Shown here: piece after piece, positions 5,076 to 62,258 of the stretch
How positions within the stretch are numbered: the first letter of the stretch is position 1
Layout: every line of letters begins with the position of its first letter
Translations under genes and position numbers: made by a program
Notes under the pieces: generated by a model
Databases searched by the model: none
Told to the model about the DNA's origin: nothing
The model's input: the letters and a program-made list of their open reading frames with translations, nothing else
Assembly (NCBI RefSeq): GCF_056746865.1
Contig: NZ_CM163382.1
Strand: one strand, 5' to 3'
Length of the DNA: 64,000 nt

Positions 5076-5116
5076 TATTAATTCCGATTGAGTTTATTAT
5101 TAATTAGGTCACTGGC

Positions 5117-5836
5117 TTACTGCATGGTTGCCTTAATACGCGGAGTTAATGCACCGTAATCATTGATCGTCTGAAAACTGATATCCCCGGTTGCAGCATG
5201 CGGGATATCCACCGATACTTCACCTTTTGGCGGCACCATGGTGTTTGGGAGATTGCTATTTCCTGCTTTCATATTTGTTACGGTAATGAAGTAGGGCGTT
5301 GGATTAATAAGAGTGAGTTTGCTGCCGCTGCGACGAAACCGAAGCATTGCAGGCGCTTCTTCAGGTGCCATTGCCAGGTTCGTGGGGCGATAAAACATTT
5401 TTATGCGGCTAATAATTGCCAGCTGTAATGTATTCTCATTCTTCTGATCTTTTTCCATAGCAGGAATAGCTTTAACATTAACCCAGAACAGGCTTTCACG
5501 GTCGCCTGGTAACTGATGATTAGTGGCGTTGATTATCCGCAGCGTATTCTCTTTTTTACCTTGCATGGAAAAAAGCGGTGGCGTAATGACAAACTGGGTG
5601 TCTTTTTGGTCACCTGCATTTTCTATCCATGACTGAATGAGATAGACACTGGCAGGATCATTATTCGTGACAGGCAATAAAACCTGTTTCTGGTTTGCCG
5701 GATAAATTACCCGCGTCGCACCCAGTGCGACAGCTGCGTTGGCAATGGTGCTATGGCAAGCAAAGAGCAATAAAAGTAACACTGTCGCCATAAAGGAAAT
5801 AGAGTAGGGGGTACGCGTAGTTTGCATCTGATGCAT
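5117..5836 (-). CDS. periplasmic fimbrial chaperone (PapD/FimC family)
   Basis: 239-aa ORF with signal peptide and chaperone-like length between major subunit and usher; start probably internal (MATVLLLLLFAC…). Confidence 0.8.
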   Translation of the reverse strand: MHQMQTTRTPYSISFMATVLLLLLFACHSTIANAAVALGATRVIYPANQKQVLLPVTNNDPASVYLIQSWIENAGDQKDTQFVITPPLFSMQGKKENTLRIINATNHQLPGDRESLFWVNVKAIPAMEKDQKNENTLQLAIISRIKMFYRPTNLAMAPEEAPAMLRFRRSGSKLTLINPTPYFITVTNMKAGNSNLPNTMVPPKGEVSVDIPHAATGDISFQTINDYGALTPRIKATMQ

Positions 5837-6189
5837 TCTCCATGTGTTAAGAGGATAAGCGGGAAAACCGTTACATCAGACAATCAGTAAATATTGCTAA
5901 TACATTGGCGACTCGCCGGGTTTCCAGACTTAATGCGTTTGTAATAAATGTTGGTTCTCTTTTAATAGGAAAACCTTGCTACAAAGTAAATATTTTAAAT
6001 AACAGTAAGTTTAACTACTGTTGTTTATTGATCGTTTAGATATTATGTGATTTTTTCATACCGCTCCAAAACACAAACTATTCCTCATTAATAATGAGAT
6101 GAACATTGGTGAATTGCTCGGGTGTGCGTAGCCATGCCACACACACCCTGTTTCAATTTCAGATGACGTATAGCCACCTTAAGATTGAA

Positions 6190-6753
6190 TTATAGATATT
6201 GAACTTTGAAGGTCGCATCAGCGTTTGCAGTACCAGCTACTGACTGCCCGAGAGCAATATATCGAGCCTGGAACGGCAATATATTCGTGCCATCAATCAA
6301 GTCAGTTTTAGCACTAAAAGTGGCACCATCAAGTATTAATACCTCACCCGTACGGTCCAAAATTTGAATACCGACATTTTGGGCAGAGCCTGCCGCTGAA
6401 CTCTGCAGCGCTAACGTATCGTCATTACTGGTGACAGTAGTACCCAGGAATGCAACAGCTGCATTACTGGAAACATTGGTATCACAATCATTCAGCTTGA
6501 TATTGAAGCCAACGGCGGAGCTGAGGTCACCCGCTTTAGCCAGACGAGAAGAACGGACCTGACCCAGCTCAACCGTTTGGTTCATTGATTCTGAATCAAT
6601 CGCACAAGCGGCATTTACCACTTCACCTTTAAAATGAATAACACCGCCATTAACAGTGGTCGTTACTGATTCATCACCCTCGGCTGCGCTTACCGCAGCA
6701 GACGACATCGCCAACACAGAAACGACAATCATACCGACATGTTTGAGTTTCAT
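6190..6753 (-). CDS. major fimbrial subunit (FimA-like pilin)
   Basis: 187 aa from ATG at 6753 with GGAG RBS; signal peptide ending SAAVSA; C-terminus ATFKVQYL resembles type-1 pilin termini; first gene of the operon. Confidence 0.75.
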
Positions 6754-7186
6754 AATTCTCCAAAATTTATATTTAAGTAGCTTAATAAAGAAAGTTAACA
6801 ATCAAGTCATTCTGTTATTGCTTATAAAACAAGAATCATTCTTGATGGGATATTGCCCTGAGAATATAGTTTCCAGGGTTATTACATTTCACGAAGAACG
6901 ATAATATCTTTAAATTACAAGGACACCTAATCACAACAAGTTTATTGCAGCACTTGTTGTAGAGAGTATTTGCAAAGACATTTTATGTCGCTAAATAACA
7001 TTACGATTTCATTATGCATGTTATTTATAAACAGCGACTAAACAGAATATTATTGCGAACAAGGGAAGTGTCAGGAAAGGTCAAGAGTTACTAATGGTTT
7101 ATATGGCTAAAAATCATTAGCTATGGTTAATGTTTGCTTTCTGAAACTAACGCCAAATTGCTCTAACCAGATAAATGCAGGGTTTA

Positions 7187-7441
7187 TTAAAGCTGATCGA
7201 CAGACTTTCTTAACCTGGCAATATCTCTCTTAGGTGACTCTCCAAACATCCGCGAATATTCCCGACTGAAATGGGATAAGCTTTCGTAACCGACAGCATA
7301 GGCTGCAGTGGTGACATCGTAATGTTCATTCAGCATCAGTCGCCTGGCTTCATTGAGGCGTAGCCATTTCTGATACCGGAGTGGACTCATTCCCGCAAGC
7401 TGTCTGAAGTGTTGATGGAAAGAGGGTGTGTTCATTTGCAC
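7187..7441 (-). pseudogene. yneL: C-terminal fragment of AraC-family transcriptional regulator (HTH only)
   Basis: 84-aa ORF carrying only the second AraC HTH (…YESLSHFSREYSRMFGESP…); no in-frame N-terminal domain upstream. Confidence 0.6.
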
Positions 7442-7721
7442 GCGGTTTGCCAGCCTGACTCTTCAACGCAGGGAAGATGCGGCAAACGGCAAACCTGCAT
7501 ACCAGCCAGCCTATATCCGGTATGCACAGGCCAATCATGAAAGAGGAGAGGCTTTATGTTCTGGAACCCTGAAGTAATAACGACGACCGTAAAATCGCTT
7601 CGCATCACTCAAATTCCATTTAACTATTCTGGGTTTGAGGGATATACATAATTGACTTCAGCACCAGAAACAGCATAACAAACTGTTTTAAATGGATATT
7701 AATCAAATGACGATTCAAACT

Positions 7722-7756
7722 CACAGTTATGAACTCAGTTTTGGTTCATAACTGTG
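7722..7756. repeat. perfect 13-bp inverted repeat CACAGTTATGAAC / GTTCATAACTGTG with 9-nt spacer
   Basis: Read directly from sequence; a related palindrome GTTCATGAAC-TGTT occurs at 7797-7810. Confidence 0.6.
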
Positions 7757-7855
7757 TTAAACGCTGTCCATAAATCACTCGATGTCACGTCTGTTGGTTC
7801 ATGAACTGTTCGTTCTAATGTTGTGATGTGCGTCAGGTTTTGGTGTTCAGTAATA

Positions 7856-8659
7856 TTACGTTTTACTCGATGAGCGATTGATTAATACCTCTCCGACAAC
7901 AGGAGCAGCGGTAAATGCGTTTGGCCAGCCAGCGTAAAACGCGGCTTGGGTAACGATCTCCCCAGCTTCCTCAGCAGAAAGTCCATTATCCATCGCTCTG
8001 TTAAGGTGATAGCCAATCTGCGCGCTCTGTCCAGATGCGATTAACGCGCTGACCGTAATCAGGCTTCTATCACGGGGGGTTAGCGCGGGTCTTTGCCAGA
8101 GATCCAGGAACAGTGGGTCAGCAGTAAATTTAACCAAGCCTGGAGATATTCGGCCAACATTTTTTTCCACTGTCTCTGAACGCTGCTTTTCTGCTTCCTG
8201 ATTGAGAGGAAGCAGGTCCGGAGAAGCGTCAGGAAGCGCATCTGGCGTGACGCCACGAGTTTCAAATACTGCTTTGGTCACGCTGACGGCTGACATTGCA
8301 TTTGGCCAACCTGAGTAGAACGCCAGATGGGTAATGATTTCTGATAATTCCGCTGGCGTCACGCCGCTATCGAGAGCGACGTCAATATAGTGCTTAAGCT
8401 CGGCAGGCTGGTTGCGGGCAATCAGCATGGCGACGGTCACCACACTACGATCCCTCGGTGAGAGGGCGTCGCGTGTCCACAGATCTTCAGTAATAGCTTC
8501 GCGACCAAAGCGCGCGAGAGCCGGTGAGACGGAACGAATATCAGCTTCCGAAATCGCTGACGGTTCTATTTTCATCATAGCTTTACCTCTTGTTTCCTCA
8601 GCATTGGCAAAATCAGAAATAACAAGCGACATAGCCGCTGCTGCAAGTACGCTTTTCAT
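7856..8659 (-). CDS. secreted tandem carboxymuconolactone-decarboxylase (CMD / AhpD-like) family protein
   Basis: 267-aa ORF with signal peptide; two repeats each carrying the CMD-type motif (ITHLAFYSGWPNA and VTQAAFYAGWPNA). Confidence 0.65.
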   Translation of the reverse strand: MKSVLAAAAMSLVISDFANAEETRGKAMMKIEPSAISEADIRSVSPALARFGREAITEDLWTRDALSPRDRSVVTVAMLIARNQPAELKHYIDVALDSGVTPAELSEIITHLAFYSGWPNAMSAVSVTKAVFETRGVTPDALPDASPDLLPLNQEAEKQRSETVEKNVGRISPGLVKFTADPLFLDLWQRPALTPRDRSLITVSALIASGQSAQIGYHLNRAMDNGLSAEEAGEIVTQAAFYAGWPNAFTAAPVVGEVLINRSSSKT

Positions 8660-8674
8660 GTTAATCCTTACTGG

Positions 8675-9400
8675 TCAACGTTGCGGCTCCTGTTTGATTC
8701 CGCCTTTGTTACGAAGAAATACCGGTTTTACCGGGATTGCGTCCTTCCTGGCGCTCATATGCGCCGTTTGCCTGAGGTAATCCAGGAAGTGCAGCGTTTG
8801 TCGGTGCAGTTGATAATCCTCCTCACTGGCGTAAATCTCATAGAAATACCAGCGTTTTGGAGTCTCTGAATCTGTACCGGCATACATGGCTAACACGCCT
8901 TTCTCTACTTTGAGCGACTCGACCATTTCAGGAAGGACGATGTTTCTAAATTCGCTCTGAAATTCAGGCTTTACTTCGACGATCACCAGATTATTGATAG
9001 TTCGTTCATTCGGTATGATGTGTTTGTCGCCCAGAAACTGTGGCTCCAGGGTAATTTTCTTCTTACTGTCAATAATGTCAGGTGCACGAGCAGCGAATGC
9101 TTTGTATGGGGCGGCATTGAGATGTTTGCGATAAGCACGCTCATTTTCATAGAGTTCGAACATGAATGCCTGACCTGAATTGTCGCTGCGTTGCAGGGCA
9201 TACATCGCCAGTGTACCTGCTTCATGATCAACCGAAGCGGAAATCGTCTGTCTGGCCACGTCTGCAAAGTCGTTGTCCCGATCGGGTCTGATGCCGAGCT
9301 CGAAGATATTCATCTCCGGCTTATTCGGCGCGTCCGGTTTTGTTGCAAAGACAGGGCTGCTTATTAGCATGCAAATTAAAAGCATAAAAGTCTTTTTCAC
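8675..9400 (-). CDS. secreted protein with two ABM (antibiotic-biosynthesis-monooxygenase-like) domains
   Basis: 241-aa ORF with signal peptide (MKKTFMLLICMLISSPVFA); two ~100-aa repeats with ABM-like pattern (AMYALQRSD…FMFELYENE / AMYAGTDSE…YFYEIYASE). Confidence 0.5.
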   Translation of the reverse strand: MKKTFMLLICMLISSPVFATKPDAPNKPEMNIFELGIRPDRDNDFADVARQTISASVDHEAGTLAMYALQRSDNSGQAFMFELYENERAYRKHLNAAPYKAFAARAPDIIDSKKKITLEPQFLGDKHIIPNERTINNLVIVEVKPEFQSEFRNIVLPEMVESLKVEKGVLAMYAGTDSETPKRWYFYEIYASEEDYQLHRQTLHFLDYLRQTAHMSARKDAIPVKPVFLRNKGGIKQEPQR

Positions 9401-9515
9401 GATGATCTTTTTACTGACATTACTGTTTAAGACGTTCGATCAACTGGTGCTGGTAAGAACGTAACCGACCGCTACTGGCGCTCTCAAAGACGAGAGGAGG
9501 AAAAGTGAATAAGGG

Positions 9516-10535
9516 CTATCGCATCCAGACCTGCTTAACATCTTTCGTTTGCGGCGTATTTTGCGCCATGATCCCCGTCAGAACATGCGGCTGGTAGGTT
9601 TCTTCCAGAAACTGAATTTCCTCCGGACTTAGTTGAAGATTTACTGCGTTTACCGCGCCATCGACATGAGCTTTTTTTGTAGCCCCTACGACAGGTGATG
9701 TGACTTTTGTCAGCAGCCAAGCGAGAGATATTTCCGTCATTGACACCAGATGGCGTTCGGCCAGTTCGGCTACACGCTCAATAATGCTGCGATCCTGTTC
9801 AGCCGTGCTGTCATATTTTCCACGCGCATAGTCATCCTCTGTGGCTCGCCGTGTATAGCCTTCTTTACGAGAGAGGCGGCCGCTGGCCAGCGCGCTATAG
9901 GGGGTCATTGCGATATTATCCTCAGTGCACAGGCCGAAGAGCTCCCGTTCATCTTCGCGCATAATTAGATTGTAGTGGCTCTGTACGGAAACAAAGGGCG
10001 TCAGCCCTTCGCGTTCAGCAAGGGCGTTCGCCTTCGCCAGCTGCCAGGCATAGCAGTTTGAAATACCAACAGCTCGTACTTTGCCAGCAGTAACAGCGGT
10101 ATGTAACGCTTCAAGCACGTCGATAATGGGCGTGTTGTAATCCCAGATGTGGTAGATGTAGAGGTCGATATAGTCCATCCCCAGATTCTTCAGGCTCTGG
10201 TCAAGGGATTGAGCGATTGCCTCTTTTCCGCTGATCCCTCCGGCAATTTGTGCGGGGGTTCGCGGCAGAAACTTGGTGGCCAGGACGATATCATCGCGTT
10301 TCGCCATCTCCCGTAATGCCCGGCCAACGTATCGCTCACTGGAGCCATTCTGGTAGGCTATAGCGGTATCGTAAAAGTTGATGCCCTTTTCAAGGCCATA
10401 GCGAATGATGTCGCGGCTTGCTGTTTCGTCCAGCGTCCAGCTATGCTGACCCGTCGACGGATCGCCAAACCCCATGCATCCCATGCAGATGCGGGAAACA
10501 AGTAAGTCACTTTTACCGAGCCGGGTATACTGCAT
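9516..10535 (-). CDS. aldo-keto reductase family oxidoreductase
   Basis: 339-aa ORF; N-terminus MQYTRLGKSDLLVSRICMGCMGFG and overall pattern typical of AKRs (Tas/YajO-like). Confidence 0.8.
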   Translation of the reverse strand: MQYTRLGKSDLLVSRICMGCMGFGDPSTGQHSWTLDETASRDIIRYGLEKGINFYDTAIAYQNGSSERYVGRALREMAKRDDIVLATKFLPRTPAQIAGGISGKEAIAQSLDQSLKNLGMDYIDLYIYHIWDYNTPIIDVLEALHTAVTAGKVRAVGISNCYAWQLAKANALAEREGLTPFVSVQSHYNLIMREDERELFGLCTEDNIAMTPYSALASGRLSRKEGYTRRATEDDYARGKYDSTAEQDRSIIERVAELAERHLVSMTEISLAWLLTKVTSPVVGATKKAHVDGAVNAVNLQLSPEEIQFLEETYQPHVLTGIMAQNTPQTKDVKQVWMR

Positions 10536-10537
10536 TG

Positions 10538-11110
10538 TTATTCTCCCTCTGGATTATTCACGACGGAATTGAGCAGTTCGACAAGCCTTGAAGCGTGTTC
10601 CCGGGCAAGCGTTTTTTGCTGCGCGATTTTGTCGGCATCCCGGTCGGCATAGCTGATACCGCAGGTATAAACCGGCGCCAGCAGCTCAAGATTGCACAGC
10701 CTTGCCGTGGTTTCGAACGGAATAAGATACTCTTCAATGGTATGGCCAAAGAAACTGTCGACGGTATAGAGCTCCTCTGGCGCTCCCGTTGTAAAGGAGA
10801 GGATCAGCTTTTTACCGCCCAGTTTCGCCGTTGAGCCATGCGCGAAGCCGTGAACAAAGACCTCGTCCAGCCATTTTTTCATTAATCCTGGCAGCCCATA
10901 CCAGGAAAAAGGGAACTGCCAGACAATCACATCGGCCCTGAGCAGGCTTTCCTGCTCCGCCGCGATGTTGAATTTGCCATCCGGATAGAGCCTGTCCAGA
11001 CGACGAATCTCAACATCAGGAAGGGCGGTCTCCACTTCATCAAGAATAGTGGCATTGGCGACGGAATGGGTAAGCTCAGGATGACCTGAAATAACAAGGA
11101 TATTTTTCAT
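10538..11110 (-). CDS. flavodoxin-like NAD(P)H:quinone oxidoreductase family protein
   Basis: 190-aa ORF beginning MKNILVISGHP…, resembles Flavodoxin_2 / KefG / MdaB-type quinone reductases; 2-bp gap to upstream AKR gene. Confidence 0.65.
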   Translation of the reverse strand: MKNILVISGHPELTHSVANATILDEVETALPDVEIRRLDRLYPDGKFNIAAEQESLLRADVIVWQFPFSWYGLPGLMKKWLDEVFVHGFAHGSTAKLGGKKLILSFTTGAPEELYTVDSFFGHTIEEYLIPFETTARLCNLELLAPVYTCGISYADRDADKIAQQKTLAREHASRLVELLNSVVNNPEGE

Positions 11111-11260
11111 TTCAATCAGTTAAACATCTTTGGTGAATATTAAATCCAGTATAGAGTGACAACATTATTTTTTTAGAGCAGTAAAGGCTCATTCACTTTT
11201 AGGCAAAAACTAATAATTGTCGGCTGATCACAATGTGCTCAGTCATCATGAAACGGTGAA

Positions 11261-11938
11261 CTAAACCGTGATGCCCAGTAAACGTTCTGCATTGCGAAAC
11301 GCGATGGCCTCTTTTTCAGCCTTGTTGACGGGCAGACTGTCTATAAAGGTTTTTACACCGTCCAGGGTCTGATAGGGATAATCGACGGAGAACAGGATCC
11401 TTTCAGCACCCATTAACGCGTAGATAAACTGGAAGTGCGGCAGTGTTAGCATATGACGGGGTAACGTAAACGTGTTCCTGGAAGGTTCTCGTTAGCGTGC
11501 GTGACAGACCCGTTGCAGCCAGTGGCAGGCTGTCATCAAGACGCTGGAGCCAGAAGGGTAACATCTCACCCCAGTGGCCACTGATTACCTGCAAGTGGGG
11601 ATATTTATCAAATGCACCCGATAACATCAGCCGCAACAAATGGATCCCCGCTTCGTGATGCCAGCCCCAGGCAAACATAGAAAGCCTGGAGTTGACCTCT
11701 GCGCTGAAGCCCGTGAAGTAGGCCTGCTGTACGCTTTTAAGCGGTAACCCGGGATGAAGATAGAGTGGCACATTCAGTTTATTAAAGCGGGAAAGCAGGG
11801 AGTCGGTCAGGATTATGACCATCAGCGACGGTTTTCCCCCAGTCGCCAAGGAAAGGTGCCTGCTCAAGCGCAACAGGCATACACGCTCGCCCTAACTCGC
11901 TGTCGAGATAATTTTCTTCGAGGCAAATGATTTTCATA
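11261..11938 (-). pseudogene. amidohydrolase-family gene disrupted by at least two frameshifts
   Basis: Three consecutive reading frames carry pieces: MKIICLEENYL… (from ATG 11938), then …ISGHWGEMLPFWLQRLDDS…, then …FSVDYPYQTLDG…; metal-dependent amidohydrolase-like motifs but no single intact frame. Confidence 0.5.
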
Positions 11939-12039
11939 TTCTCACCATTCATACAAAGCAGTAAAAGTGATACAGATTAGAATCACCCGGAACAGCCCGT
12001 TCGTGTGTGTCATTCATGACAGTCTGTTCCGGACGGGCT

Positions 12040-12987
12040 TTACACCATCGGTTTTTCCCAGGCGCCTCGTGTATCCACTCTGGTCTCTGCGGCGAGTTGT
12101 TCCAGCAGGATGATTTCCTCATCGCGTAACTGGATGTCTGAAGCGCAGGCGGCGTCCAGAACGTGATGGACTTTAGTCGCACCAACGAGGGGAAGGGTAC
12201 CTTTCGCAATAGCCCATGCGATGGCTATCTGTGCCACGCTGGCATTCCTTTCGGCTCCCATTTTTTTCATGGCGGCGGTTAGTCTTTCTATCTGCGGCAG
12301 TACTGCGTTATAACTTTCGGCCCGGCCACTCCCGGCAGGCATGGGATGATTTGAATCATAACGACCACTGAGCGCGCCTTGCTCCAGGACCATGTAAGCA
12401 AAGAACGTGATGTTATTTTGTCGGCAATAATCAAGGATCCCGGCCTCTTCAGAAGCGCGATAGAGCAGGCTGTAGTGATTTTGTACTGCACTGAGGGAAT
12501 AACCGGAAGCGTTAAGGATTTCATTGGCGCGTCTGATTTGTGCCAGATTGTGGTTGGAAACACCTACGCGTTTTACCTTACCGCTTTGTAAAAGTGGGAT
12601 CAGTCCTGGTGTCCATTTTTCGACGTCGAGGGGATTATGGATCCAGTAGATATCAATCGCGTCCACGCCCAGGCGCCCAAGGCTGGCCTCAAGCATATCG
12701 CTGACAGGCTGCGCAGACTGCTTGTCCGCAATCTGCGGCGTGAATTTGGTGGATAAAATTATGTTCTCGCGGGGAAACTGACGGACTAATGCTCCCAGCG
12801 CAGTCTCGGAACTCCCCATACCATATACTGCTGCGGTATCCCAGAGATTGAGGCCCTTACTCATGGCCGCAGTGAACACTTCTGCCATCTGAGTATCAGA
12901 AAGATGATTACCAAAGACGGTGTCGCCGCCGGCAAAGCCTGTGCCCCAGGACCATGTACCTAGTGCGACTGGAGGTAGTGTTTTCAT
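12040..12987 (-). CDS. aldo-keto reductase family oxidoreductase (second copy)
   Basis: 315-aa ORF with AKR-like N-terminus and overall pattern. Confidence 0.75.
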   Translation of the reverse strand: MKTLPPVALGTWSWGTGFAGGDTVFGNHLSDTQMAEVFTAAMSKGLNLWDTAAVYGMGSSETALGALVRQFPRENIILSTKFTPQIADKQSAQPVSDMLEASLGRLGVDAIDIYWIHNPLDVEKWTPGLIPLLQSGKVKRVGVSNHNLAQIRRANEILNASGYSLSAVQNHYSLLYRASEEAGILDYCRQNNITFFAYMVLEQGALSGRYDSNHPMPAGSGRAESYNAVLPQIERLTAAMKKMGAERNASVAQIAIAWAIAKGTLPLVGATKVHHVLDAACASDIQLRDEEIILLEQLAAETRVDTRGAWEKPMV

Positions 12988-13060
12988 ATTCAGCTCCTGA
13001 AAAAAGGCCGGATCGTGGCTGACTTAAACCGGCCAAGTAAGGTGAGTAACGATGAATTAA

Positions 13061-13762
13061 TTAAGCTGTCCGGCGGAGTGCATTTAACAGCGCCACACCA
13101 ACCCCATGTGCTGAAGCGGGATTCTGCCCCGTGATAAGGCGATCGTCGGTAACCACGTTTTCAGACCAGTTTGGAGCTTCATGATAAAGCGCACCATGCT
13201 CGCGAAGTGCGGTTTCAAGCAGGAAGGGAACCACATCTGTTGTGTGAACTTCTTCCTCTTCCTTGTTGGTAAAGGCCGCCACATTTTTCCCTTTTATCAG
13301 GTATTCGCCGCTACTGAGTTTTGCGTCAACCAATGCCGCAGGCCCGTGGCAGACGGCTGAGACAATCCCATCACTTTCATACACTTCGCGGATAATACGC
13401 TGGGCATCCTGATTATCACGGAAATCCCACATGGTCCCATGACCACCTGCAAAGAAAACTGCGCTGTAATCGGCACCTTTCAGCTCGGATAACGCAGGTG
13501 TTGTTGCCAGGCGCTGCTGAAAATCGGTTTCGTTCCAGTACCAGGCGTTAACAGGGTCGCTGAGGTCAAATCCATCCACCGGTGGCTGCCCCCCGCGAAT
13601 ACTGGCTATTGTTGTTTTTATTCCGGCATCTTCCAGTACTTTCAGCGGATGAGTCAGCTCGGCCAGGAAAAAACCGGTTGGTACACCGGATGCGCCTTTA
13701 ATCGGATGGCTGGAAACGACACATAGCACTGGTTTATATGCAGGTTTCATATCGGTCCTCAC
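13061..13762 (-). CDS. DJ-1/PfpI (class I glutamine-amidotransferase-like) family protein
   Basis: 233-aa ORF with nucleophile-elbow-like motif AVCHGP; GAGG RBS before ATG 13762; start overlaps upstream gene stop by 4 bp (ATGA). Confidence 0.65.
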   Translation of the reverse strand: MRTDMKPAYKPVLCVVSSHPIKGASGVPTGFFLAELTHPLKVLEDAGIKTTIASIRGGQPPVDGFDLSDPVNAWYWNETDFQQRLATTPALSELKGADYSAVFFAGGHGTMWDFRDNQDAQRIIREVYESDGIVSAVCHGPAALVDAKLSSGEYLIKGKNVAAFTNKEEEEVHTTDVVPFLLETALREHGALYHEAPNWSENVVTDDRLITGQNPASAHGVGVALLNALRRTA

Positions 13763-14070
13763 TCTTTATTTTTAAATTCATCGGCGAAGAGATTTTCCCA
13801 GTTAATAAAGGAGCCAAGCGGTATACACTCGAAGCTTAGTAAGCCTGCTTTTGCCAACGGGAATTCGGCCATAACGTTCATCGCTTCATCGACAGAGTCA
13901 CATTCAAGAAAAATAGCGACGCCAGGTCTGTCCTGACGGAAGTAGATGTCGCGGATGAAGCCTGATTTATACAATCCCCAGGCGTGCAGCGCTTCAGCGT
14001 TGAGGTGCGGAGCATATTTCTCCAGCGATGCTCCAGGGGCAGGGATATCCAGACATAAAATTCGCATCAT
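13759..14070 (-). CDS. small muconolactone-isomerase-like protein
   Basis: 103-aa ORF; resemblance to muconolactone isomerase pattern is weak and by eye only; first gene of the co-oriented cluster. Confidence 0.35.
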   Translation of the reverse strand: MMRILCLDIPAPGASLEKYAPHLNAEALHAWGLYKSGFIRDIYFRQDRPGVAIFLECDSVDEAMNVMAEFPLAKAGLLSFECIPLGSFINWENLFADEFKNKE

Positions 14071-14206
14071 AGTCTCCTGAACTCAGGTCGTAGTAGAAAG
14101 AGACTAAAGTATAAGAGGCGTATTTCAGGAAGATTAGAGGGTCATTGACTTAAGCATTTTTAGACTGTACTTAATAATCAGGCGAGAATTGCTTTAGGAA
14201 AACATT

Positions 14207-15106
14207 ATGAATAACGCTCTTTATAACCAGATTCGCATCTTCCAGAGCATTGCGCGGGAGGGCAATATTTCGGCAGCCGCAAGGAAACTGGAAATTACGC
14301 CTCCCTCCGTCAGCAATGCACTAAAGCTGCTGGAAGAGTATATCGGTCATCCGCTTTTTGTGCGTACGACCCGCCGTATAGAGCTGACGGAAACCGGTCA
14401 ATTATTGCTGGAACAGACCGCTGCGGCGGTGGAGTCGCTGGAAAACTCACTTGAAAGCATTCGCGACCAGCATCAGGAGCCCTCAGGGATGGTGCGAATT
14501 ACGCTCTCGCGTTTTGCCTACCTGTTAATTCTTAAGCCTGCGATGGCAGAATTCTGTCAGCAATATCCGGGTATACAGTTAGAAATTTCGGTCTACGACG
14601 GTACCGTGAATATCATCAAAGAGCGTTTTGATCTGGGGATCCGTTTTGGCGATATTCTTGAGGGAGGGGTGGTGGCCCGACCGTTAATGAAACCGTTTCG
14701 TGAAGGATTATATGCATCCTCAGCGTATCTCTCCCGACATGGAACGCCTGAAGTGCCGGCAGATCTCTGTCATCACCAGCTGATTGGTTACCGTTTTATC
14801 ACCAACAACCGCATCCTTCCGCTGCTCCTGAACGATCGCGGTGAGCAGTTGACCGTTGAGATGCCGGGGCAGTTAATCAGCAACGATATTGACGTTATGG
14901 CAGACGGGATCCGTAACGGGCTGGGAATTGGGCGCTTGTTTGAGCCTGTCTGGCAGTTACAGCCGGACAGGGAGCGCTTTATTCCGGTGATGGAGAGCTA
15001 CTGGAAAACCTACCCGCCAGTGTATCTCTATTACCCCAAAAACGCGGGTAAAACGAAAAGAGTGAAGGCCCTGATTGATTTTCTGATATCCACTACGGGG
15101 CGATAA
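14207..15106 (+). CDS. LysR-family transcriptional regulator, divergent from the cluster
   Basis: 299-aa ORF with N-terminal HTH (…ISAAARKLEITPPSVSNALKLLEEYIGHPLFVRTTRRIELTETG…) and LysR substrate-binding-domain length. Confidence 0.85.
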   Translation: MNNALYNQIRIFQSIAREGNISAAARKLEITPPSVSNALKLLEEYIGHPLFVRTTRRIELTETGQLLLEQTAAAVESLENSLESIRDQHQEPSGMVRITLSRFAYLLILKPAMAEFCQQYPGIQLEISVYDGTVNIIKERFDLGIRFGDILEGGVVARPLMKPFREGLYASSAYLSRHGTPEVPADLCHHQLIGYRFITNNRILPLLLNDRGEQLTVEMPGQLISNDIDVMADGIRNGLGIGRLFEPVWQLQPDRERFIPVMESYWKTYPPVYLYYPKNAGKTKRVKALIDFLISTTGR

Positions 15107-16826: not shown

Positions 16827-17092
16827 TACCACTCCAGATCTTGCTGTTCTGTTGATTCTGGCGAGGCATTTTTCGTGTCGCATAGCGTCATTGAGAGTTC
16901 AAGCGACTGTAAAATCTTAAAAAATGTCGTCAGCGTGGTATTGTCAGGATTGTTTTCGAAATTGGAAATTGTCGCCTGCTTAATACCGATTTTTTTCGCC
17001 AGCTCGCTCTGCGTCCAGCCATTTTGCTGACGAACCAGTTTCATTGCATTCGCTAATTGCGTTGGGCTATAGATCTTCTGAAAGCTCATCAT
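16826..17092 (-). CDS. hipB: HipB antitoxin / Xre-type repressor
   Basis: 88 aa from MMSFQKIYSPTQLANAMKLVRQQNGWTQSELAKKIG…; HTH motif; immediately upstream of hipA. Confidence 0.9.
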   Translation of the reverse strand: MMSFQKIYSPTQLANAMKLVRQQNGWTQSELAKKIGIKQATISNFENNPDNTTLTTFFKILQSLELSMTLCDTKNASPESTEQQDLEW

Positions 17093-17113
17093 GTCATACG
17101 TCCACAGCATATT

Positions 17114-17227
17114 TATCCGCTCAAGGGGATATTATCAGTTTTATCCTTTAGTGAGGATAAAGTCAATCTGGAAACACATCTTATCCGCTCTACGGGATAA
17201 ACGCTGCGATATCCGCGATCGCGGATA
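17114..17227. promoter_or_regulatory. hipBA operator array: four TATCC-N8-GGATA palindromes
   Basis: Exact palindromes at 17114-17131, 17142-17159, 17182-17199 and 17210-17227, directly upstream of hipB; matches the known HipB operator consensus. Confidence 0.85.
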
Positions 17228-17302
17228 AAAAGGAGGATTTAAAAGTCGTTTGAAGTCGGCAATATTAAGCCGCATGCATCTTCGACATGCGGCTTATACG
17301 GT

Positions 17303-20300
17303 TTACCAGCTATATTTCACACCCAGCATGCCCTGAGTATCGCTATAGCCTTTATCACCTAGTTGCACACCGACATTCCCCCACAGGCTAAGGTTGTTAT
17401 TTACTTTCGCCTCAACCCCGGTACGTACTTCACCGAGATTACGCGCACCATCACGGCTTACGGTTTGACCATTCATCTTCACGGCGTAGACTTTGCTGTT
17501 GTTGATCCAGTTCGCTTCAATGTAAGGCTGGAACTCACGCTGTTTACCATTGTCACGCTGGTGATGACTGTTCAGGTAGGTTTTCACCCCAAGTCGCGTT
17601 TGCACGTTTCCGTCACCTTCCGTTTCAATGCGTGTTCCGTCCTTCCGGATATGGTCAGAATCTTTCACACCCATCCAGGTGATTTGCACCTGTGGCTGGA
17701 CGTACCAGGTATTCAGCGTCCCTTCGCTGCCGCTAAATGTTCCCGCTTCAAAGGTATACCCACCCTCAACAGAGGCCGTCACACCGCGAGAATCATAGTC
17801 GTCAGCAGAACGGTTATCGGAACTGACGCTGTTATCAAACCAGTTATACAGCGCCCAGCTGTCAACATAAGCGCCGGTCTTATTCGCATCGTTCTGATAC
17901 CAGGTCGCGTAAATCCCAGCGCTGTACCCGCTGATGCGCCCATCCGATTTATAACCCACACGATTACTCTGAGTATTACTGTGCTGATTGGCATAGCCTG
18001 CCATGACGCCGAGATGCCAGCGATCCTGCGCGTTGCTACTCCACTGCGCCAAATCGCCGCCTAGCTGCAATACATAGCGGTTAGCCTGAGTATTTAGCTG
18101 ACCGTCACCGGCCCTTGAACGTTCGTGCCCTCCGACATGACGCATCCACATACTGCTTGCCGAACCCTGAGAATGCAGTGAATCTGTATACTGCGGCTCA
18201 CCCAGACGGTCGTGTAAACGATGGCTAAACAGCGAGTTGGCTGCGGCAATGTTGCTGATATAGCTTCCGGCCTCCGGGCGATAAACTGATGGGCCTTCCG
18301 GATCCACAACAGGAGGATTATTGATGGGATCGGGTGTATCCGCTGGCGTTACGCCGTCCCATTTACTGGTCAGATACCAGTTTTTCTCGTCATTCCCCTT
18401 CCCTTTAGCCAGCGTGTAGACGTAAGCCCCAGCTTCGACAGTTCCGGTGGTCAGCGCGAAGTTACCTGCAGAATTACCGCCGACCTCAATGAGTTCAATA
18501 CCGTTGACAGTTTGTGCACCGACGCCGCCAATGTTATCAACCCGAACGCGAGTATTCCCTTGGGTATCGCCTTTCACGTTCATCTTATCGGTGGGCGAAT
18601 TATCGCCGCCCAGCGTCGCGTTGAACGTCATCAGGCCATTGTTTCCGGTATAGTTACCGTTAACGGTCAGTACATTCCCCGGTTTTCCTCCTTCGCTGTT
18701 CATTTGAACCGTGCCACCATTCTCCAGGTTACCGCCGACAGTGGTTTTAGCGACACGCAGTGTCCCCCCTGGCATAACGTTCACATCACCTGCAGTGGTG
18801 ACATTTCCCGACATCACACCGCTGTTATGGATATTAATGTGTTGACTTGCCATATTAATGGCAGAGTCGGAACCGAAAGCAATTTCACCACCCACGATAT
18901 CCGTCGTACCCTGATACGCCGCGGAATCTTTGTTAAGAGTCAGGATCCCGGTCCCCAGTTTTGTCACATCACCGCTACCGCTGATACTGTGCGTCATCGC
19001 CCAGCTACGCTCAGTGGAGATGGTGAGCAGGCCATTATTGATAACGGAAGCATCACCCAGGTTTTTCTGCTCGTTGACGCTGAGCGCGCTGCCTGTATCA
19101 ATGTTGAATTGCCCCACAAAGCGGCTATTATCGCCATCCAGCTCTACATCTGTCCTGGCGGTTGCGCTCACGATACCCTTCCCGCTTATGCTATTACGCA
19201 GTTCGCCGGTCACATTTTTTAGCGTTAACAGACCGTCATTGGCAATATTTCCTCTGCCTAACCCCTGCGTATTATCGAGGCTGACTTCGGCATTTGGGCT
19301 AATGCTGGTTAACGCATTGTAGCGTGCATTAAGCCCCTCGATAGCCAGTGTTCCCCCTGTAACATTCAGGTTTCCGCCACCTGTCAGTTCGCCCTGACTG
19401 ATCCCACCTTTATTCACCGTCAGCGACCCCTCTTTAAACAAAACAGTCGAACCCATCAGCCCGGTGAATGTCTCTACCGTCTGGGCCGATCCATTAAGAT
19501 CGACGATGGCCGCGTTGCTGATGTTCAGTTCCCGAGTATTGCCCAGCGCGCCATCCGCATCGGTACGTAATGTCCCCATCTGAACGTAGGTTGCCCCCTG
19601 ATAGTCGTTCTGACCGTTAGAAAGCGAAACCTGTCGCACCGTATTGATTGCCAGATCCCCTTCACCACCGATTTTTGCCGACATATCGGCCGTTGCGCCA
19701 TAGGCTCCGCCATGTTCGGCTAACGTCAGCTTTTGCCCACCATGGATGTTCAGCGCTTTCAGCTCATAGTTAACGTACAAACCATCACCTGGTGCGGTCG
19801 TGAGGCGGAATCCATAATCACCCTCGGCGACCACTATTCCGTTTTGTGCAATGTGTAACGTTTTGTCCGCTTCCACCTCGTCGCCCTGTAAATCACGTAA
19901 CGTTAATGAGCCACCCGACCCAATAACCGTTTGCGCCTTCACCAGTTGAACGCCGACATGGCTATCATCGTGTTCCAGCAAATTGAGCGTCGTCAGAGGG
20001 TTATTCGCCATGGGATCATTCCACGGTTTAGGCACGTCGATAAGCACGTCGCCCGTCCCGTTTACCTGATAGTTACGGCCTTTCCAGGTGTAGTCACCCG
20101 CGCCGACAACCAGTGTATCGACGCTGATATATCCCTCCGCAAGCGTCGCAGCAGGTATATCCGTATCGAAAGTGAGCGTACCGCCATTCATGGCTAGTCC
20201 ACCAATGGATTGCTCTCCCACTTTTACCGATGTGGTATTTTCACTGTCAGACTGCAGCATCGCGTGAGTAAGCGCAGCGGTGTTGTCGCGTTCCAGTGCG

Positions 20301-22723
20301 AAGGTACTGTCTTTCAGTTGGGCAACACCGGCGAATTCAGTCCCTGCTGCATGGGTAAAGCCAAACATTTTGTCGGAGGATGACAGCTGCACTCGCATCA
20401 AGCCATCGCCTTTGAGCGCATTGGTCAGCGTGTAATCTCCCGCACTGTTCGTTGATGCGAGAATGTCGAGCGTACCGGGGCTTGCAATGGTTACTTCACT
20501 CGAACCCATGCCAGTTACCCCATCTGCCGTATGTGACGCAATGGTCAGGAGGCCGCCATTGACCAACGTTTTACCGCTATAAGTATTCCCTGCATTGAAC
20601 ACCGTATGGCCTGCATCATGCATCACTTTTCCGTCTTTATCGTCACCCGTAATCAGCATATCGACCTGGTAGCCGGCATCACTGTTATTGGTATGATTAA
20701 AGACAAAAACGCCTTCGCCAAGACCAAACTCCACTTTCGTCGCATTGGTGATAAATCCGGCATCTGCCGCCGCCTCACCGTGAGCAGCACCAATGTTTAG
20801 CGTTCCTACAGCAGGCGCAAAAACACCTAAGTAAACTTCTCCACCTTCGACATTCAGCGTACCGTTATTCGTCAGGGTTAACGTACCTGTGCCAGTCGTC
20901 CCTACGTTCATATTGAATGTTTCAAGAAGAGAGTTCTGCCCATCCACCCGCACGTCGCCCTTACTTTTGTCATTGAGAGCTATTTGTGTATCACGCGCTT
21001 TAACTATACCTCCGGTGGTAATATTCAGTTCACCCGCGCCTAATACACCGACCTGTAGTAATTGGGCGTTAGTAGATGATGTCTTTAAATTCCAGAGACT
21101 ATCCGTTGAAATATTAACTATCCCCTTACCGGAGGCATTTCCTCCGATAAATCCATAGCCCGTTGAATTAAGAGTGGCACCATTACTGACATTTACGATG
21201 CCGCTACCAAAATTACCGACATTGATACCTACAGTATCGAACGATGATGTCGCATCCATCAGGTTCAGTGTGCCGATACCGCTTGCTTTATCGCCCAAAA
21301 AAGTAATATTTTGCGATACGAACTTACCGCCATCGCTGATATTGAGGTTTCCGACACCCGCAACACCAATGGTGGTATAGACATTCTTATTGACCTCCCA
21401 CATCCCCCCCGTGGTGATGCTGACATTCCCGACGCCGGTTTCTCCATAACCGAGTGAGCTTCCTCCGTTGCTGACAACAAGCCCCTCATTACTGATATTC
21501 ATTTCGCCGTGGCCGTCATAACCAAGATTAGTTCCGAGATTAGTGATAACGGAGTTCTTATCCTTAATAGTAATGTTGCCTGTGCCTGTTTCTTTCATCC
21601 CCGCAGTGATAATTCCCGAATCTACTTTTCCTTCACTCGAGACATTAAGTTCACCGTCGCCAGCATCACCGATATAGATATAGCGGAAAGCTTCGCCCGT
21701 TCCGAGGAAATTCCAATGCCCTTTATCGGTCACGTTGACGACACCGTGGGACCCGTCCTGAACGCCCACAAATGAATATTCTTTGTTATTAATCAGTCCA
21801 TTATTGGAAATATTGACTTTGCCATTACCGAAATATCCATTATAGAGTCTGCGTACCGTGATAACAGAGTCTTGATCCTGCACATTCAGGGTTCCGATAC
21901 CGGTGGCATTGCCACCGATAATCGTATTTTCAGCCGTAATCAGCCCCCCCTCGCGAATAGTCGCTTCCCCCGTGCCTTGATTGCCAATTTGAAATTCAAT
22001 TGAGGAATCATTATTTTTTATTAGCCACTCGCCACCCTTTTCAACGACAACCTTACCATTGCTGTTCGCCTGATATCCTACAATGGCGACGATTGAACTC
22101 GTGACGTAACCCTTATCCGTAATATTTAATGAGCCTGTACCGTAACTCCCTATTTCGAATAATTCGGTCGTCAGAACCGAGTACTCTCCCTCAACATTGA
22201 CCGTCCCGACGCCTCCTGTCGAAGAACCTATCCTTAAATATCCTCCGTCAACGTGACCCTTCTGTTTAATATTCAGCGTCCCCGTACCGGATTGACCCAC
22301 ATTTAAAGGCCTTGCATTATTTCCGCTATCATACAATCGCCAGGTGCCACCCAAAACATTAACGGTACCCTCCGAGTCCTCATTAGCGCCAATGACGCTG
22401 GTAGTAATAGTGGTTAAGGAAGCATTACCGCCAGCCAAAATATTAAGCACTCCAGTGCCATACCACCCAACCAGGTAGGCATCGTAAGCAATATCAGTAT
22501 TAATATTGGTAATCTGACCATTATCAACTTCCAGACTCGCACCACACGCTGAACCGCTTAGTGCCAGCAAAACACCCAGCGTCAATCTACTGAATTTCGT
22601 TGTCAGTCCAGAGGATTTACGCAAATTAACCGTTGATGTTTTACCTACCCTGCGAGTTAATTCCGAGCAGGCCTGAAATACCTGTAGGGTGCAATTCCAT
22701 ATCACGCGATAGATTCTATTCAT
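17303..22723 (-). CDS. yneO: AIDA-I-type autotransporter adhesin, full length (K-12 counterpart is the yneO/ydeK pseudogene)
   Basis: 1806-aa ORF; extended signal peptide MNRIYRVIWNCTLQVF…; long Gly/Asn/Thr-rich repeat passenger; C-terminal beta-barrel-like region ending …GMLGVKYSW. Confidence 0.85.
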   Translation of the reverse strand: MNRIYRVIWNCTLQVFQACSELTRRVGKTSTVNLRKSSGLTTKFSRLTLGVLLALSGSACGASLEVDNGQITNINTDIAYDAYLVGWYGTGVLNILAGGNASLTTITTSVIGANEDSEGTVNVLGGTWRLYDSGNNARPLNVGQSGTGTLNIKQKGHVDGGYLRIGSSTGGVGTVNVEGEYSVLTTELFEIGSYGTGSLNITDKGYVTSSIVAIVGYQANSNGKVVVEKGGEWLIKNNDSSIEFQIGNQGTGEATIREGGLITAENTIIGGNATGIGTLNVQDQDSVITVRRLYNGYFGNGKVNISNNGLINNKEYSFVGVQDGSHGVVNVTDKGHWNFLGTGEAFRYIYIGDAGDGELNVSSEGKVDSGIITAGMKETGTGNITIKDKNSVITNLGTNLGYDGHGEMNISNEGLVVSNGGSSLGYGETGVGNVSITTGGMWEVNKNVYTTIGVAGVGNLNISDGGKFVSQNITFLGDKASGIGTLNLMDATSSFDTVGINVGNFGSGIVNVSNGATLNSTGYGFIGGNASGKGIVNISTDSLWNLKTSSTNAQLLQVGVLGAGELNITTGGIVKARDTQIALNDKSKGDVRVDGQNSLLETFNMNVGTTGTGTLTLTNNGTLNVEGGEVYLGVFAPAVGTLNIGAAHGEAAADAGFITNATKVEFGLGEGVFVFNHTNNSDAGYQVDMLITGDDKDGKVMHDAGHTVFNAGNTYSGKTLVNGGLLTIASHTADGVTGMGSSEVTIASPGTLDILASTNSAGDYTLTNALKGDGLMRVQLSSSDKMFGFTHAAGTEFAGVAQLKDSTFALERDNTAALTHAMLQSDSENTTSVKVGEQSIGGLAMNGGTLTFDTDIPAATLAEGYISVDTLVVGAGDYTWKGRNYQVNGTGDVLIDVPKPWNDPMANNPLTTLNLLEHDDSHVGVQLVKAQTVIGSGGSLTLRDLQGDEVEADKTLHIAQNGIVVAEGDYGFRLTTAPGDGLYVNYELKALNIHGGQKLTLAEHGGAYGATADMSAKIGGEGDLAINTVRQVSLSNGQNDYQGATYVQMGTLRTDADGALGNTRELNISNAAIVDLNGSAQTVETFTGLMGSTVLFKEGSLTVNKGGISQGELTGGGNLNVTGGTLAIEGLNARYNALTSISPNAEVSLDNTQGLGRGNIANDGLLTLKNVTGELRNSISGKGIVSATARTDVELDGDNSRFVGQFNIDTGSALSVNEQKNLGDASVINNGLLTISTERSWAMTHSISGSGDVTKLGTGILTLNKDSAAYQGTTDIVGGEIAFGSDSAINMASQHINIHNSGVMSGNVTTAGDVNVMPGGTLRVAKTTVGGNLENGGTVQMNSEGGKPGNVLTVNGNYTGNNGLMTFNATLGGDNSPTDKMNVKGDTQGNTRVRVDNIGGVGAQTVNGIELIEVGGNSAGNFALTTGTVEAGAYVYTLAKGKGNDEKNWYLTSKWDGVTPADTPDPINNPPVVDPEGPSVYRPEAGSYISNIAAANSLFSHRLHDRLGEPQYTDSLHSQGSASSMWMRHVGGHERSRAGDGQLNTQANRYVLQLGGDLAQWSSNAQDRWHLGVMAGYANQHSNTQSNRVGYKSDGRISGYSAGIYATWYQNDANKTGAYVDSWALYNWFDNSVSSDNRSADDYDSRGVTASVEGGYTFEAGTFSGSEGTLNTWYVQPQVQITWMGVKDSDHIRKDGTRIETEGDGNVQTRLGVKTYLNSHHQRDNGKQREFQPYIEANWINNSKVYAVKMNGQTVSRDGARNLGEVRTGVEAKVNNNLSLWGNVGVQLGDKGYSDTQGMLGVKYSW

Positions 22724-23244
22724 ATAAACGCTCCATATACAAACAATACAGCCACGAAAGAGATGAGTCGTCAGACATTAAAAATGAAACTTATTAAATT
22801 GTCAGAGGTCTGTATTGAGTGTTGGTTGGAGGTGGGAAGGTGTCAATTTGGCTAATTTGCTAATACTTTCGAAGCGATAGATTAAAAATTGCATAGTTCT
22901 TATTTTATTTAAAAATGAACCATGAGTTATTGTTGCTTAATAAGAAAAATGTTTCTTTCAATAAGAAAATTACCATCATCATATTTAACAAAGAATAGCA
23001 CTAATTGCTAAAAAAAGAAGTTTATTAAACCCCTTTTTCATCCATTAATGCCTTTAGGAATATTCGATATAAAATAAGGGTTATGCTTAATGCTTTAAGA
23101 AAAATAGCAATTTCCCCTTGAATATATTACGGGCGATGGAACGATGAATCTGCAAGCTGGCATTTAACAAACCAGCTCTAAAAGAAGGGAAATAAGAATA
23201 CTCAAAAAACAGCCACGGTCATCATGATGTGGCTGTCAATGAAA

Positions 23245-24837
23245 CTATAACCCAGGCGCTTTCCATAACGACGTCGTCAGTCCATGATCAACCAGCCCCA
23301 GCTGATCCTGATAAACTGCCTGCCACTTATCCCGTGAATCCTGATAAAGTTCATGCTTTTCCGGGTCTGGTGTGTGCGTCCGTTCCCAGCGAACCAGGCG
23401 TTCTCCGGTTTCTGCCATTGATGAAAAAATTCCGGCACCGACGCCAGCTGCAATGGCACATCCTAATGCGGTGGCTTCTTTGACCACCGGAATATTGACG
23501 GGTAATCCCGAGACATCAGCGAGAATTTGACTCCATAATTTCCCTTTTGAACCTCCGCCTGCAAAGACTAACGATGAAGGATGAATATTCGAGAAATCAG
23601 CGATTTGTTGCAAATTACACGCTGATACAATCGCCGCATTTTCTTCCAGCGCACGGAACAACGTCGCTTTGTTACATTTATCCGGATCAATAGACAAATT
23701 AATAAAGGAAGGCGCAGCGTGATACCAGGTTTTAAAGCGCATTCTGTCGGAGAATATCGGCATTACGCCCCACGACCCAGGCGGCACCCGACTTGCCATC
23801 TCTTCCAGCAGCGTATAGGTGTCGATGCCTAAACGTTCGGCAATCAGTTTTTCTTCGGCACAGAAAGCATCGCGGAACCAGCGCATGGTGAGTCCGGTAA
23901 AAAAGCTTATAGATTCAGCTTGTACCATGCCAGGAATAACATGAGGATTAACGCGCACGTTCATTTCTGGGTCTGTCACCGGCGCGGCTAAGTTTACAAC
24001 TTGCTGCCAGAATGTGCCGCCAAGAACAGCGGTTTGTGCCGGACGCACAACGCCTAACCCCAGGCAACCAAGTTGCACGTCGCCTCCTCCAACGACCACC
24101 GGAGTGCCCGCCTTCAGACCGCAGAGTTCCGCCGCTTGTGAACTTACCACGCCCAGCAATGTGCCGGTTTCTTTGACAGGAGAAAGAATATCGGCCCGCA
24201 GTCCGGCCATATCCAGCAATGCAGGTTTCCAGTCACGGGTGGTTAGGTCAAGAAGTCCCGTGGTGCCAGCGTTAGAGGGATCCACCGCCAGTTCGCCGCT
24301 GAGCATATAGGCCAGCCAGTCGCTGATCATGGTGATGGTCGACGCCTGTCGGTAGATATCAGAACGATGGTGCGCCAGCCAAAGTAATCTGGGAATAGCG
24401 CTTAAAGCCAGCGTTTGTCCGGTGGCGCGATAAACTTCGTTTTCAAAGGTATTGTTGTGCAGTTCTTTAAGTTCGCTAACTTCGCGCGCCGCTCTGGCAT
24501 CCACATTGGCGCAGGCCCAGATCGGTGTTCCTTCATTGTTATATAAAACAATGCCTTCGCGCATCGAACATGCCGAAACGGCAGCGATATACTCCGGGGC
24601 TATGCCGGCGTTGTGCAGCGCCTGGCGCATACACTCACACGCCAGTTGCCAGTTTTTGTTGAGATCAAACTCCATAGAACCAGGAACGTCCGGTACTGCC
24701 AGGTGCCGCCACTCCGCCTGTCCCACTGCTATTTGATTGCCTTCCAGGTCGAATATCACAGCCCGAATACTTCCGGTGCCTGCATCCAGCGCCATCAGGT
24801 AGTACTTTGATTCTGAAGGGGTAAAGAGTCGAGCCAT
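23245..24837 (-). CDS. lsrK: autoinducer-2 kinase
   Basis: 530-aa ORF, FGGY-family carbohydrate kinase pattern; downstream of lsrR. Confidence 0.9.
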
Positions 24838-44670: not shown

Positions 44671-44689
44671 ACAAAAAAGAGGTATGACG

Positions 44690-62256: not shown

Positions 62257-62258
62257 CA

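Follow-up and report, generated by a model that had tools for sequence, protein, structure and literature searches.

The closest described relative of the gene treated here is yneO of Escherichia coli K-12, for which the synonyms orfT, ydeK, ydeU, b1509, and b1510 are listed under the name "AIDA-I family autotransporter YneO" (PMC10782963). A scheme of three autotransporter groups, AIDA-I-type, SPATE (serine protease autotransporters of Enterobacteriaceae), and trimeric adhesins, has also been described (PMC12525524). We analyzed a stretch of 64,000 nucleotides (nt) from NCBI RefSeq assembly GCF_056746865.1, contig NZ_CM163382.1, which is called the window throughout, and in which positions 17303-22723 of the minus strand hold an autotransporter gene.

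The window gene shares with K-12 yneO the NCBIfam family NF011422, the locus between hipB and lsrK, the promoter, and a binding box for MarA. It differs in that the K-12 copy is frameshifted in a run of eight G residues (G8), whereas the window allele is uninterrupted and carries a private G987E substitution. The family itself is already known, with a curated NCBIfam name, annotation in thousands of genomes, and a catalogued pseudogene in K-12. The gene is very probably an intact allele of this chromosomal E. coli autotransporter of the ECSE_1600 family, of the classical monomeric type Va.

Family Assignment and Domain Architecture

The list of open reading frames (ORFs) and the translation gave one ORF of 1806 amino acids (aa) plus stop, 5421 nt long, with an ATG start and the sequence GGAG located 7 nt 5′ of it. 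The protein begins with MNRIYRVIWN and ends with GVKYSW*. The GC content was 50.1% in the gene and 48.3% in the whole window. The parts of the gene are the following:

17303-22723, minus strand: complete coding sequence (CDS), very probably an ECSE_1600-family (YneO) type Va autotransporter (ORF, full-length NF011422 match, RefSeq annotation of a genome differing by one base)
22583-22723, minus strand: ESPR extended signal peptide region, aa 1-47 (Pfam PF13018, E 3.5e-14, 53.4 bits, cutoff 25)
20804-22537, minus strand: N-terminal passenger, aa 63-640, regular beta-helix rungs (TIGR04393, T5SS/PEP-CTERM-associated repeat; all-beta AlphaFold2 model)
18854-20803, minus strand: middle passenger, aa 641-1290, less regular beta-helix with longer strands (representative search, AlphaFold2, weak TIGR02601/PATR matches)
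18410-18730, minus strand: autochaperone, AC_1/pertactin-like, aa 1332-1438 (PF18883, E 9.1e-26; PF03212, E 3.9e-10)
18152-18343, minus strand: Pro/Ser-rich linker between autochaperone and barrel, aa 1461-1524 (S 16%, P 12%; aligns to the AIDA-I junction region in PDB 4MEE)
17306-18151, minus strand: C-terminal outer-membrane beta-barrel translocator, aa 1525-1806 (PF03797, TIGR01414, 4MEE)

The assignment was carried by the match to NF011422, "ECSE_1600 family autotransporter", which scored 4156.3 bits over a cutoff of 2335 and covered 1-1806 of a profile whose length is exactly 1806. The other adhesin models of NCBIfam (MisL, AIDA-I, ShdA, and YfaL/EhaC) matched the C-terminal third only, with scores far under their cutoffs. 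The barrel gave PF03797 over aa 1525-1784 (E 3.7e-40, 138.7 bits, cutoff 26, profile positions 1-254 of 255) and TIGR01414 with E 3e-122. The Pertactin match PF03212 spans aa 1335-1452, and the autochaperone was also recognized by sequence in the IcsA autochaperone structures 3ML3 and 5KE1. Thus the protein has the parts of a classical type Va autotransporter, that is, a Sec signal of the ESPR kind, a predicted beta-helical passenger with autochaperone, and a barrel with an aromatic terminal residue.

An earlier note, written by a model from the letters of the window, had described a single uninterrupted 1806-aa ORF with an extended signal peptide (MNRIYRVIWN) and a C-terminal beta-barrel ending in KYSW. 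All of this agrees with the translation, with ESPR at aa 1-47, and with the Pfam Autotransporter domain. The note had also proposed a profile search for the Pertactin, AIDA, and Autotransporter domains as a check; Pertactin and the C-terminal Autotransporter domain were both found, and the Pfam AIDA repeat gave no match. The curated family name ECSE_1600 had been overlooked.

After the ESPR region there is a hydrophobic core, LTLGVLLALSGSA, and the probable cleavage region reaches to about aa 62. Codon 60 (22544-22546), within this cleavage region, is Cys in the window allele and in its close relatives P0001 and P0106 (SGSACGAS), while most alleles have Ser at this position (SGSASGAS). Some sources label ECSE_1600 family members as lipoproteins.

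Comparison with AIDA-I, MisL, ShdA, and SPATE Proteins

The earlier note called the protein AIDA-type, which is correct for the broad group and not for orthology to AIDA-I itself. The transport unit, formed by autochaperone, linker, and barrel (aa 1345-1806), aligned to AIDA-I in PDB 4MEE, the nearest transport unit of solved structure, with E 3e-89. The likeness thus comprises a homologous autochaperone, junction, and 12-stranded barrel, together with the type Va layout. As in the broad AIDA-I-type group, there is a pertactin-like/AC junction, an AIDA-like barrel, and no protease domain. By contrast, the AIDA-I model NF033176 reached 349.3 bits, under its cutoff of 1200, and matched aa 1297-1805 only, and the passengers are unlike. 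AIDA-I has imperfect 19-aa repeats (PF16168), which gave no match in our protein at E ≤0.01; the window passenger is longer, about 1400 aa, and its rungs have a period of about 24-26 aa. In addition, no heptosyltransferase gene of the aah/tibC type adjoins the window gene, whose neighbors are lsrK and hipB.

The self-cleavage of AIDA-I was considered as well. We take its cleavage site to be S846|A847 and its acidic catalytic residues to be Asp878 and Glu897; these residues reportedly come from the work of Charbonneau et al. in 2009, which is listed as reference 63 of PMC9289746. Read with this numbering, and as an indicative comparison, the 4MEE alignment places K-P at the cleavage site of the window protein and Ile in the place of E897, while D878 is conserved as Asp.

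The matches to Salmonella MisL (NF011841, 461 bits, cutoff 1297) and ShdA (NF011847, 221 bits, cutoff 2249) were confined to aa 1458-1806, so these proteins are similar to ours only in the C-terminal translocator, the passengers being unrelated at this level. SPATE proteins have an N-terminal peptidase S6 domain with the GDSGS motif, whereas no peptidase S6 (GDSGS), lipase, or other catalytic domain was found in the Pfam and NCBIfam searches of the window protein. Orthology to AIDA-I, equivalence to MisL, ShdA, or YfaL, and membership in the SPATE group were consequently rejected on the curated cutoffs and the missing domains.

Fold and Repeats of the Passenger

The passenger is rich in Gly, Asn, and Thr and free of Cys. 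Between aa 89 and 617 it contains 18 rung motifs of the GxGxLNI type, with spacings mostly of 24-26 aa or about double (49-57 aa), and nine stretches of its N-terminal part matched the TIGR04393 repeat. The middle module (aa 641-1290) occurs at 30-48% identity in many giant autotransporters, often in several copies each; the representative search returned 3350 matches, mostly covering positions 650-1200 of the query.

An AlphaFold2 model of aa 55-1254 was built from an alignment of 36 sequences taken from a representative search of 1.8 billion proteins. It consisted almost entirely of short beta strands, with a mean pLDDT (predicted local distance difference test) of 90.3. The values were mostly 90-98 in the N-terminal passenger; in the middle passenger they fell to 62-90 over about aa 854-1014 and were 88-97 elsewhere. 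The best PDB matches of this model in Foldseek were Ag43 (7KOH, 4KH3, and 7KO9), TibA (4Q1Q), Ag43b, Hap, and IcsA, and those to Ag43 and TibA had E values of 4e-7 to 1e-4. Ag43 and TibA, the best structural matches to the predicted beta-helix, are likewise chromosomal surface proteins of E. coli and often strain-variable; the window passenger is more than twice as long. With regard to their self-association, Dam/OxyR phase variation, and glycosylation, the likeness of our protein to them is limited to the fold.

Considering that the passenger is large and has no assigned function, and that Hap, EspC, EspP, and Hbp appeared among the weak fold matches, the protein could be thought of as a secreted toxin or protease of the SPATE or lipase kind instead of an adhesin. 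This is very improbable. To the lack of a catalytic domain must be added that the SPATE fold matches had E values of at least 0.016 and probabilities of 0.33 at most, far from those of Ag43 and TibA, and that a Gly/Asn/Thr-rich, Cys-free passenger with a regular rung motif does not speak for such an enzyme.

The earlier note had regarded the passenger as repeat-rich and the gene, for that reason, as prone to assembly collapse. The first statement is right at the protein level, where the 18 rung motifs and nine TIGR04393 stretches were found, and wrong at the DNA level, where these repeats are degenerate. Tandem Repeats Finder detected no tandem repeat within the gene, a k-mer count found no exact repeat of 14 nt or longer, and the only direct repeat seen by the repeat finder was a 20-nt pair with 85% identity. 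Furthermore, the length of 5421 nt was common to 10 independent complete genomes and to two orthologues with 85% amino-acid identity. With no DNA repeats and a recurring length, the risk of collapse is unsupported.

Shorter variants of 1443-1714 aa do occur in public protein sets, and they could suggest that the 1806-aa length is itself an artefact of collapse or expansion at internal repeats. Their junctions, however, have little microhomology (about 0-11 nt, an approximate figure, since the breakpoints were mapped onto the window allele with codon resolution) and several lie on contigs of Mb scale, so these variants are to be taken as real deletions and not as k-mer collapses. Since, besides, the gene lacks the repeats that an artefact would need and the same length is found in the 10 genomes, the two distant orthologues, and the NCBIfam profile, an assembly origin of the length is so improbable as to be negligible.

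Locus and Integrity of the Gene in E. coli

The window and 15 further E. coli records have the order hipB-autotransporter-lsrK. Of the 5426 complete E. coli genomes, 5340 matched positions 17000-23400 with an identity of 90-100%, and in 3950 of them the match covered at least 80% of the query. In this region a single mismatch separated the window from the chromosome of CFSAN061770, an E. coli from raw-milk cheese in Egypt. In K-12 BW25113, the annotation between hipB and lsrK reads "ECSE_1600 family autotransporter, frameshifted". Aligned with the window gene (97% nucleotide identity), it differs by 151 substitutions and, at gene nt 3953, by an additional base that leads to a stop at codon 1326. 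That the locus is the site of the K-12 yneO/ydeK pseudogene, as the earlier note said, is therefore established by annotation, by position between hipB and lsrK, by alignment, and by the published synonyms. The lesion falls in the following run, and it corresponds to a change from G7 to G8:

18764-18769, minus strand: poly-G run CCAGGGGGGACA (G6), the K-12 frameshift site; by alignment G6 (G6A) in the window, G7 in the common allele, G8 in K-12

In the two 85% orthologues (L020 and L021), the order was autotransporter-Pmp3-hipB-hipA, and the upstream neighbor was not lsrK but a divergently transcribed yagT-like gene of a molybdoenzyme operon. The source of one of them is named 'Enterobacteriaceae bacterium G50'.

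For the state of the gene in the species, 30 of the 5343 ranked matching records were taken at regular intervals of rank, and both annotation and sequence were checked:

10 of 30: intact 1806-aa CDS (records H1, H3, H4, H7, H12, and H14-H18)
6 of 30: frameshifted, with five distinct lesions (at nt 936, a deletion of 19 bp; at nt 3834, -1; at nt 3830, +1; the K-12 change G7 to G8; at nt 3983, an insertion of 8 bp)
4 of 30: insertion sequence (IS), one IS5 and three of the IS3 family
4 of 30: partial deletion (records H21-H24)
6 of 30: gene absent (records H25-H30)

Intact alleles make up about 33% of the sample, which for n = 30 corresponds to a range of roughly 17-53%. The sample holds at least five independent frameshift events; the 8-bp insertion at nt 3983 was common to O157:H7 Z885 and CEC03102. 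In strain E138 (H25/L019), the one absent-type record examined, hipB abuts tam, and the autotransporter is missing together with all of the lsr genes, a block of about 14.6 kb (from window position 17303 to about 31917). Judged from E138, the autotransporter and lsrRK/lsrACDBFG form one present-or-absent block.

Two clusters of 1806-aa proteins in a large protein collection had 5726 and 18868 member sequences. In the next 118 clusters among the matches listed, single in-frame deletions of 92-363 aa were mapped, at least 83 of them distinct and distributed over aa 316-1662. Most were seen once, and the deletion of aa 953-1169, which leaves 1589 aa, was present on dozens of contigs. A repeat-mediated origin of these deletions was considered and rejected, the junction microhomology having a mean of 1.8 nt against 0.8 nt for random junctions, values which share the codon resolution given above. 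Chimeras between the LsrK N-terminus and the autotransporter and between the autotransporter and HipA were also seen among public proteins (P0060, P0078, and P0073), and they indicate deletions running from the gene into either neighbor.

Intact alleles gave a ratio of nonsynonymous to synonymous substitution rates (dN/dS) of 0.11-0.15 overall, with the highest values in the N-terminal passenger (0.16-0.20) and the lowest in the barrel (0.05-0.07). Besides, the length of exactly 1806 aa was kept in orthologues with a dS of 0.6-0.7. These values show long-term purifying selection on the intact alleles. The overall picture is of a surface protein that is dispensable, retained by some lineages and lost repeatedly and independently by others.

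The G987E Substitution

The single mismatch to CFSAN061770 mentioned above is the only one in window positions 1-47771, and it falls on the middle base of codon 987:

19764, minus-strand gene (T on the plus strand): private single-nucleotide polymorphism found by comparison with CFSAN061770; codon 987 is GAG (Glu) in the window and GGG (Gly) elsewhere, motif DGLYVNYGL

A segment of 61 nt around position 19764 had no 100% match in the 4171 complete E. coli genomes that carry the segment, and all but six of these genomes differ from it by exactly one base. The exact window protein was absent from a collection of 15 billion proteins. Gly occupies position 987 in 30 of 35 aligned homologues, including ones that are only 25-50% identical. 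G987E may reflect either a true mutation or an error in base calling, and, judging from conservation, it might impair folding. The full-length allele should consequently not be equated with the wild type, a point which the earlier note had overlooked.

Upstream Region

The spacer that separates the autotransporter start from the lsrK stop had been described as very AT-rich with homopolymeric A/T runs, and this was confirmed by composition. Genomic SELEX (systematic evolution of ligands by exponential enrichment) in K-12 assigned to yneO the sigma-70 promoter CTGACA-17-TTTAAT and placed an H-NS flag in the yneO-lsrK spacer (PMC3946193). In enterotoxigenic E. coli (ETEC) H10407, chromatin immunoprecipitation (ChIP) sequencing of MarA assigned the site gcactaattgctaaa to ETEC1580/yneO, and the site was bound in vitro at 0.3 μM (PMC5684230). 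The corresponding elements of the window are the following:

22724-23244, minus strand: AT-rich spacer of 521 bp from the lsrK stop to the autotransporter start (32.1% GC, A5-A7 and T5 runs; conserved in blocks when compared with the 85% orthologues)
22777-22805, minus strand: sigma-70 promoter CTGACA-17-TTTAAT (exact match to the sequence of PMC3946193; one in the window, 0.01 expected by chance)
22998-23012, plus strand: MarA box GCACTAATTGCTAAA, in opposite orientation to the gene and 275 bp upstream of its ATG (exact match to the ETEC 15-mer)

The promoter was conserved in 15 other E. coli loci, exactly in 12 and with one or two mismatches in three. A generic promoter scan gave no more sites than shuffled sequences and missed the published promoter. 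All 15 of the other E. coli loci that were examined contain the MarA box, three of them with one mismatch. Both 85% orthologues, in spite of their otherwise diverged spacers, have an exact copy equally far from the ATG. Because it persists in distant orthologues that have a diverged spacer and a different upstream neighbor, the MarA box is, on this alignment evidence, a phylogenetic footprint accompanying the autotransporter gene.

The final 47 nt 5′ of the ATG (22724-22770, minus strand), which form the 5′ untranslated region (UTR), were 100% identical in both 85% orthologues; the synonymous divergence of these orthologues is 0.6-0.7. An RNA element in this stretch was rejected, since it had no Rfam match and was predicted to fold less stably than shuffled sequences (z +1.44) and to be unstructured. 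As for small ORFs in the spacer, only chance-like ones of 20-30 aa were present in this AT-rich DNA.

In those E. coli, about a third, that have the gene intact, the autotransporter may perhaps belong to the MarA/SoxS/Rob stress regulon, a proposal that we make tentatively and with considerable doubt. No expression data were found in the searchable literature. Taking into account that the K-12 target is a pseudogene, such a link could have been overlooked. The marRAB operon is located about 21 kb away within the same window, at about 44236-45323.

Proposed Export Pathway and Function

By analogy with its family, the protein would follow the type Va pathway. The ESPR-type signal peptide is expected from its domain match to direct Sec export, which would be slowed by the ESPR, and the C-terminal barrel of about 280 aa would insert in the outer membrane through the beta-barrel assembly machinery (BAM) and TAM, the module for translocation and assembly, as family knowledge suggests. 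The passenger of about 1400 aa would then be threaded outward with its C-terminus first and would fold on the AC_1 autochaperone into the long right-handed beta-helix that is predicted for it. Since the AIDA-I cleavage site and one of the two acidic catalytic residues are not conserved, the passenger would probably, as far as that indicative comparison goes, stay covalently attached. It most likely remains on the cell surface as a nonenzymatic adhesin or as an aggregation or biofilm factor, in the manner of Ag43 and TibA, its nearest relatives by structure. Expression is probably low in laboratory conditions, considering the AT-rich spacer with its H-NS flag, the weak sigma-70 promoter, and the MarA-bound box.

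Several points weigh against this reading. The allele carries a private, nonconservative change of Gly to Glu at a strongly conserved position. In about two thirds of the sampled E. coli (20/30) the gene is lost or broken, so it is probably of little use in many niches. The likeness to Ag43 and TibA is that of a generic beta-helix, with 12-15% identity and low TM-scores in Foldseek. About 200 bp separate the mapped -35 element from the center of the MarA box, which is upstream of it, and neither a standard class I nor a standard class II arrangement with this promoter would allow such a distance. Finally, the searchable literature yielded MarA ChIP, promoter SELEX tables, and mutation lists but no experiment with the intact protein, and for this reason the role in adhesion or aggregation is drawn only from analogy with Ag43, TibA, and AIDA-I.

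Some of these points would also fit a gene whose ORF is intact but which is cryptic or decaying, silenced by H-NS, and without any contribution in this strain, with G987E as a first inactivating missense change. The AT-rich upstream DNA with its H-NS flag, the 20 of 30 sampled records in which the gene was frameshifted, IS-disrupted, partly deleted, or absent (with their at least five independent frameshifts), the 83 distinct in-frame deletions among the public proteins listed, and the private Glu where 30 of 35 homologues have Gly are all consistent with it. On the other hand, the low dN/dS together with the exact length down to 85% identity points to long-term purifying selection, and the promoter, the MarA box, and the 5′ UTR are conserved. 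We consider a cryptic gene possible, if rather unlikely, and we retain the reading of an intact ECSE_1600-family allele.

Other Features of the Window

With respect to CFSAN061770, the window has an insertion of 1329 bp at 47772-49100, downstream of ydeE. It contains two overlapping ORFs (136 and 301 aa) within imperfect terminal inverted repeats of 33 nt, and 7 bp are repeated at both junctions; by architecture alone it is IS2-like (IS3 family). At 58274-64000, the match to CFSAN061770 ends at the edge of the tail-fibre region of a lambdoid (Qin-like) prophage, which means that the source strain and CFSAN061770 differ in prophage content.

The interval between hipA and ydeP (about 2424-15106) holds a complete fimbrial operon (fimA-like, chaperone, usher, and ydeS/R/Q) and also some 7 kb of genes for redox and detoxification functions, a LysR regulator among them, where K-12 has only a truncated usher (ydeT) and a helix-turn-helix (HTH) pseudogene. 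At 11261-11937 a gene of the amidohydrolase family is annotated as three adjacent CDS fragments (156, 420, and 153 nt) and looks broken.

Biological Significance

As a discovery, the gene has little weight, being an ordinary and catalogued gene in a well-known polymorphic locus. Its value lies elsewhere. It shows clearly how, in a single species, a surface protein has been inactivated again and again in independent events, and the strain is a working template for the intact protein, provided that G987E is considered first. Moreover, judging from the conservation of the MarA box, a surface adhesin may be connected to the mar stress regulon. If true, MarA control would link the sensing of antibiotic and oxidative stress to the display of a surface adhesin or aggregation factor.

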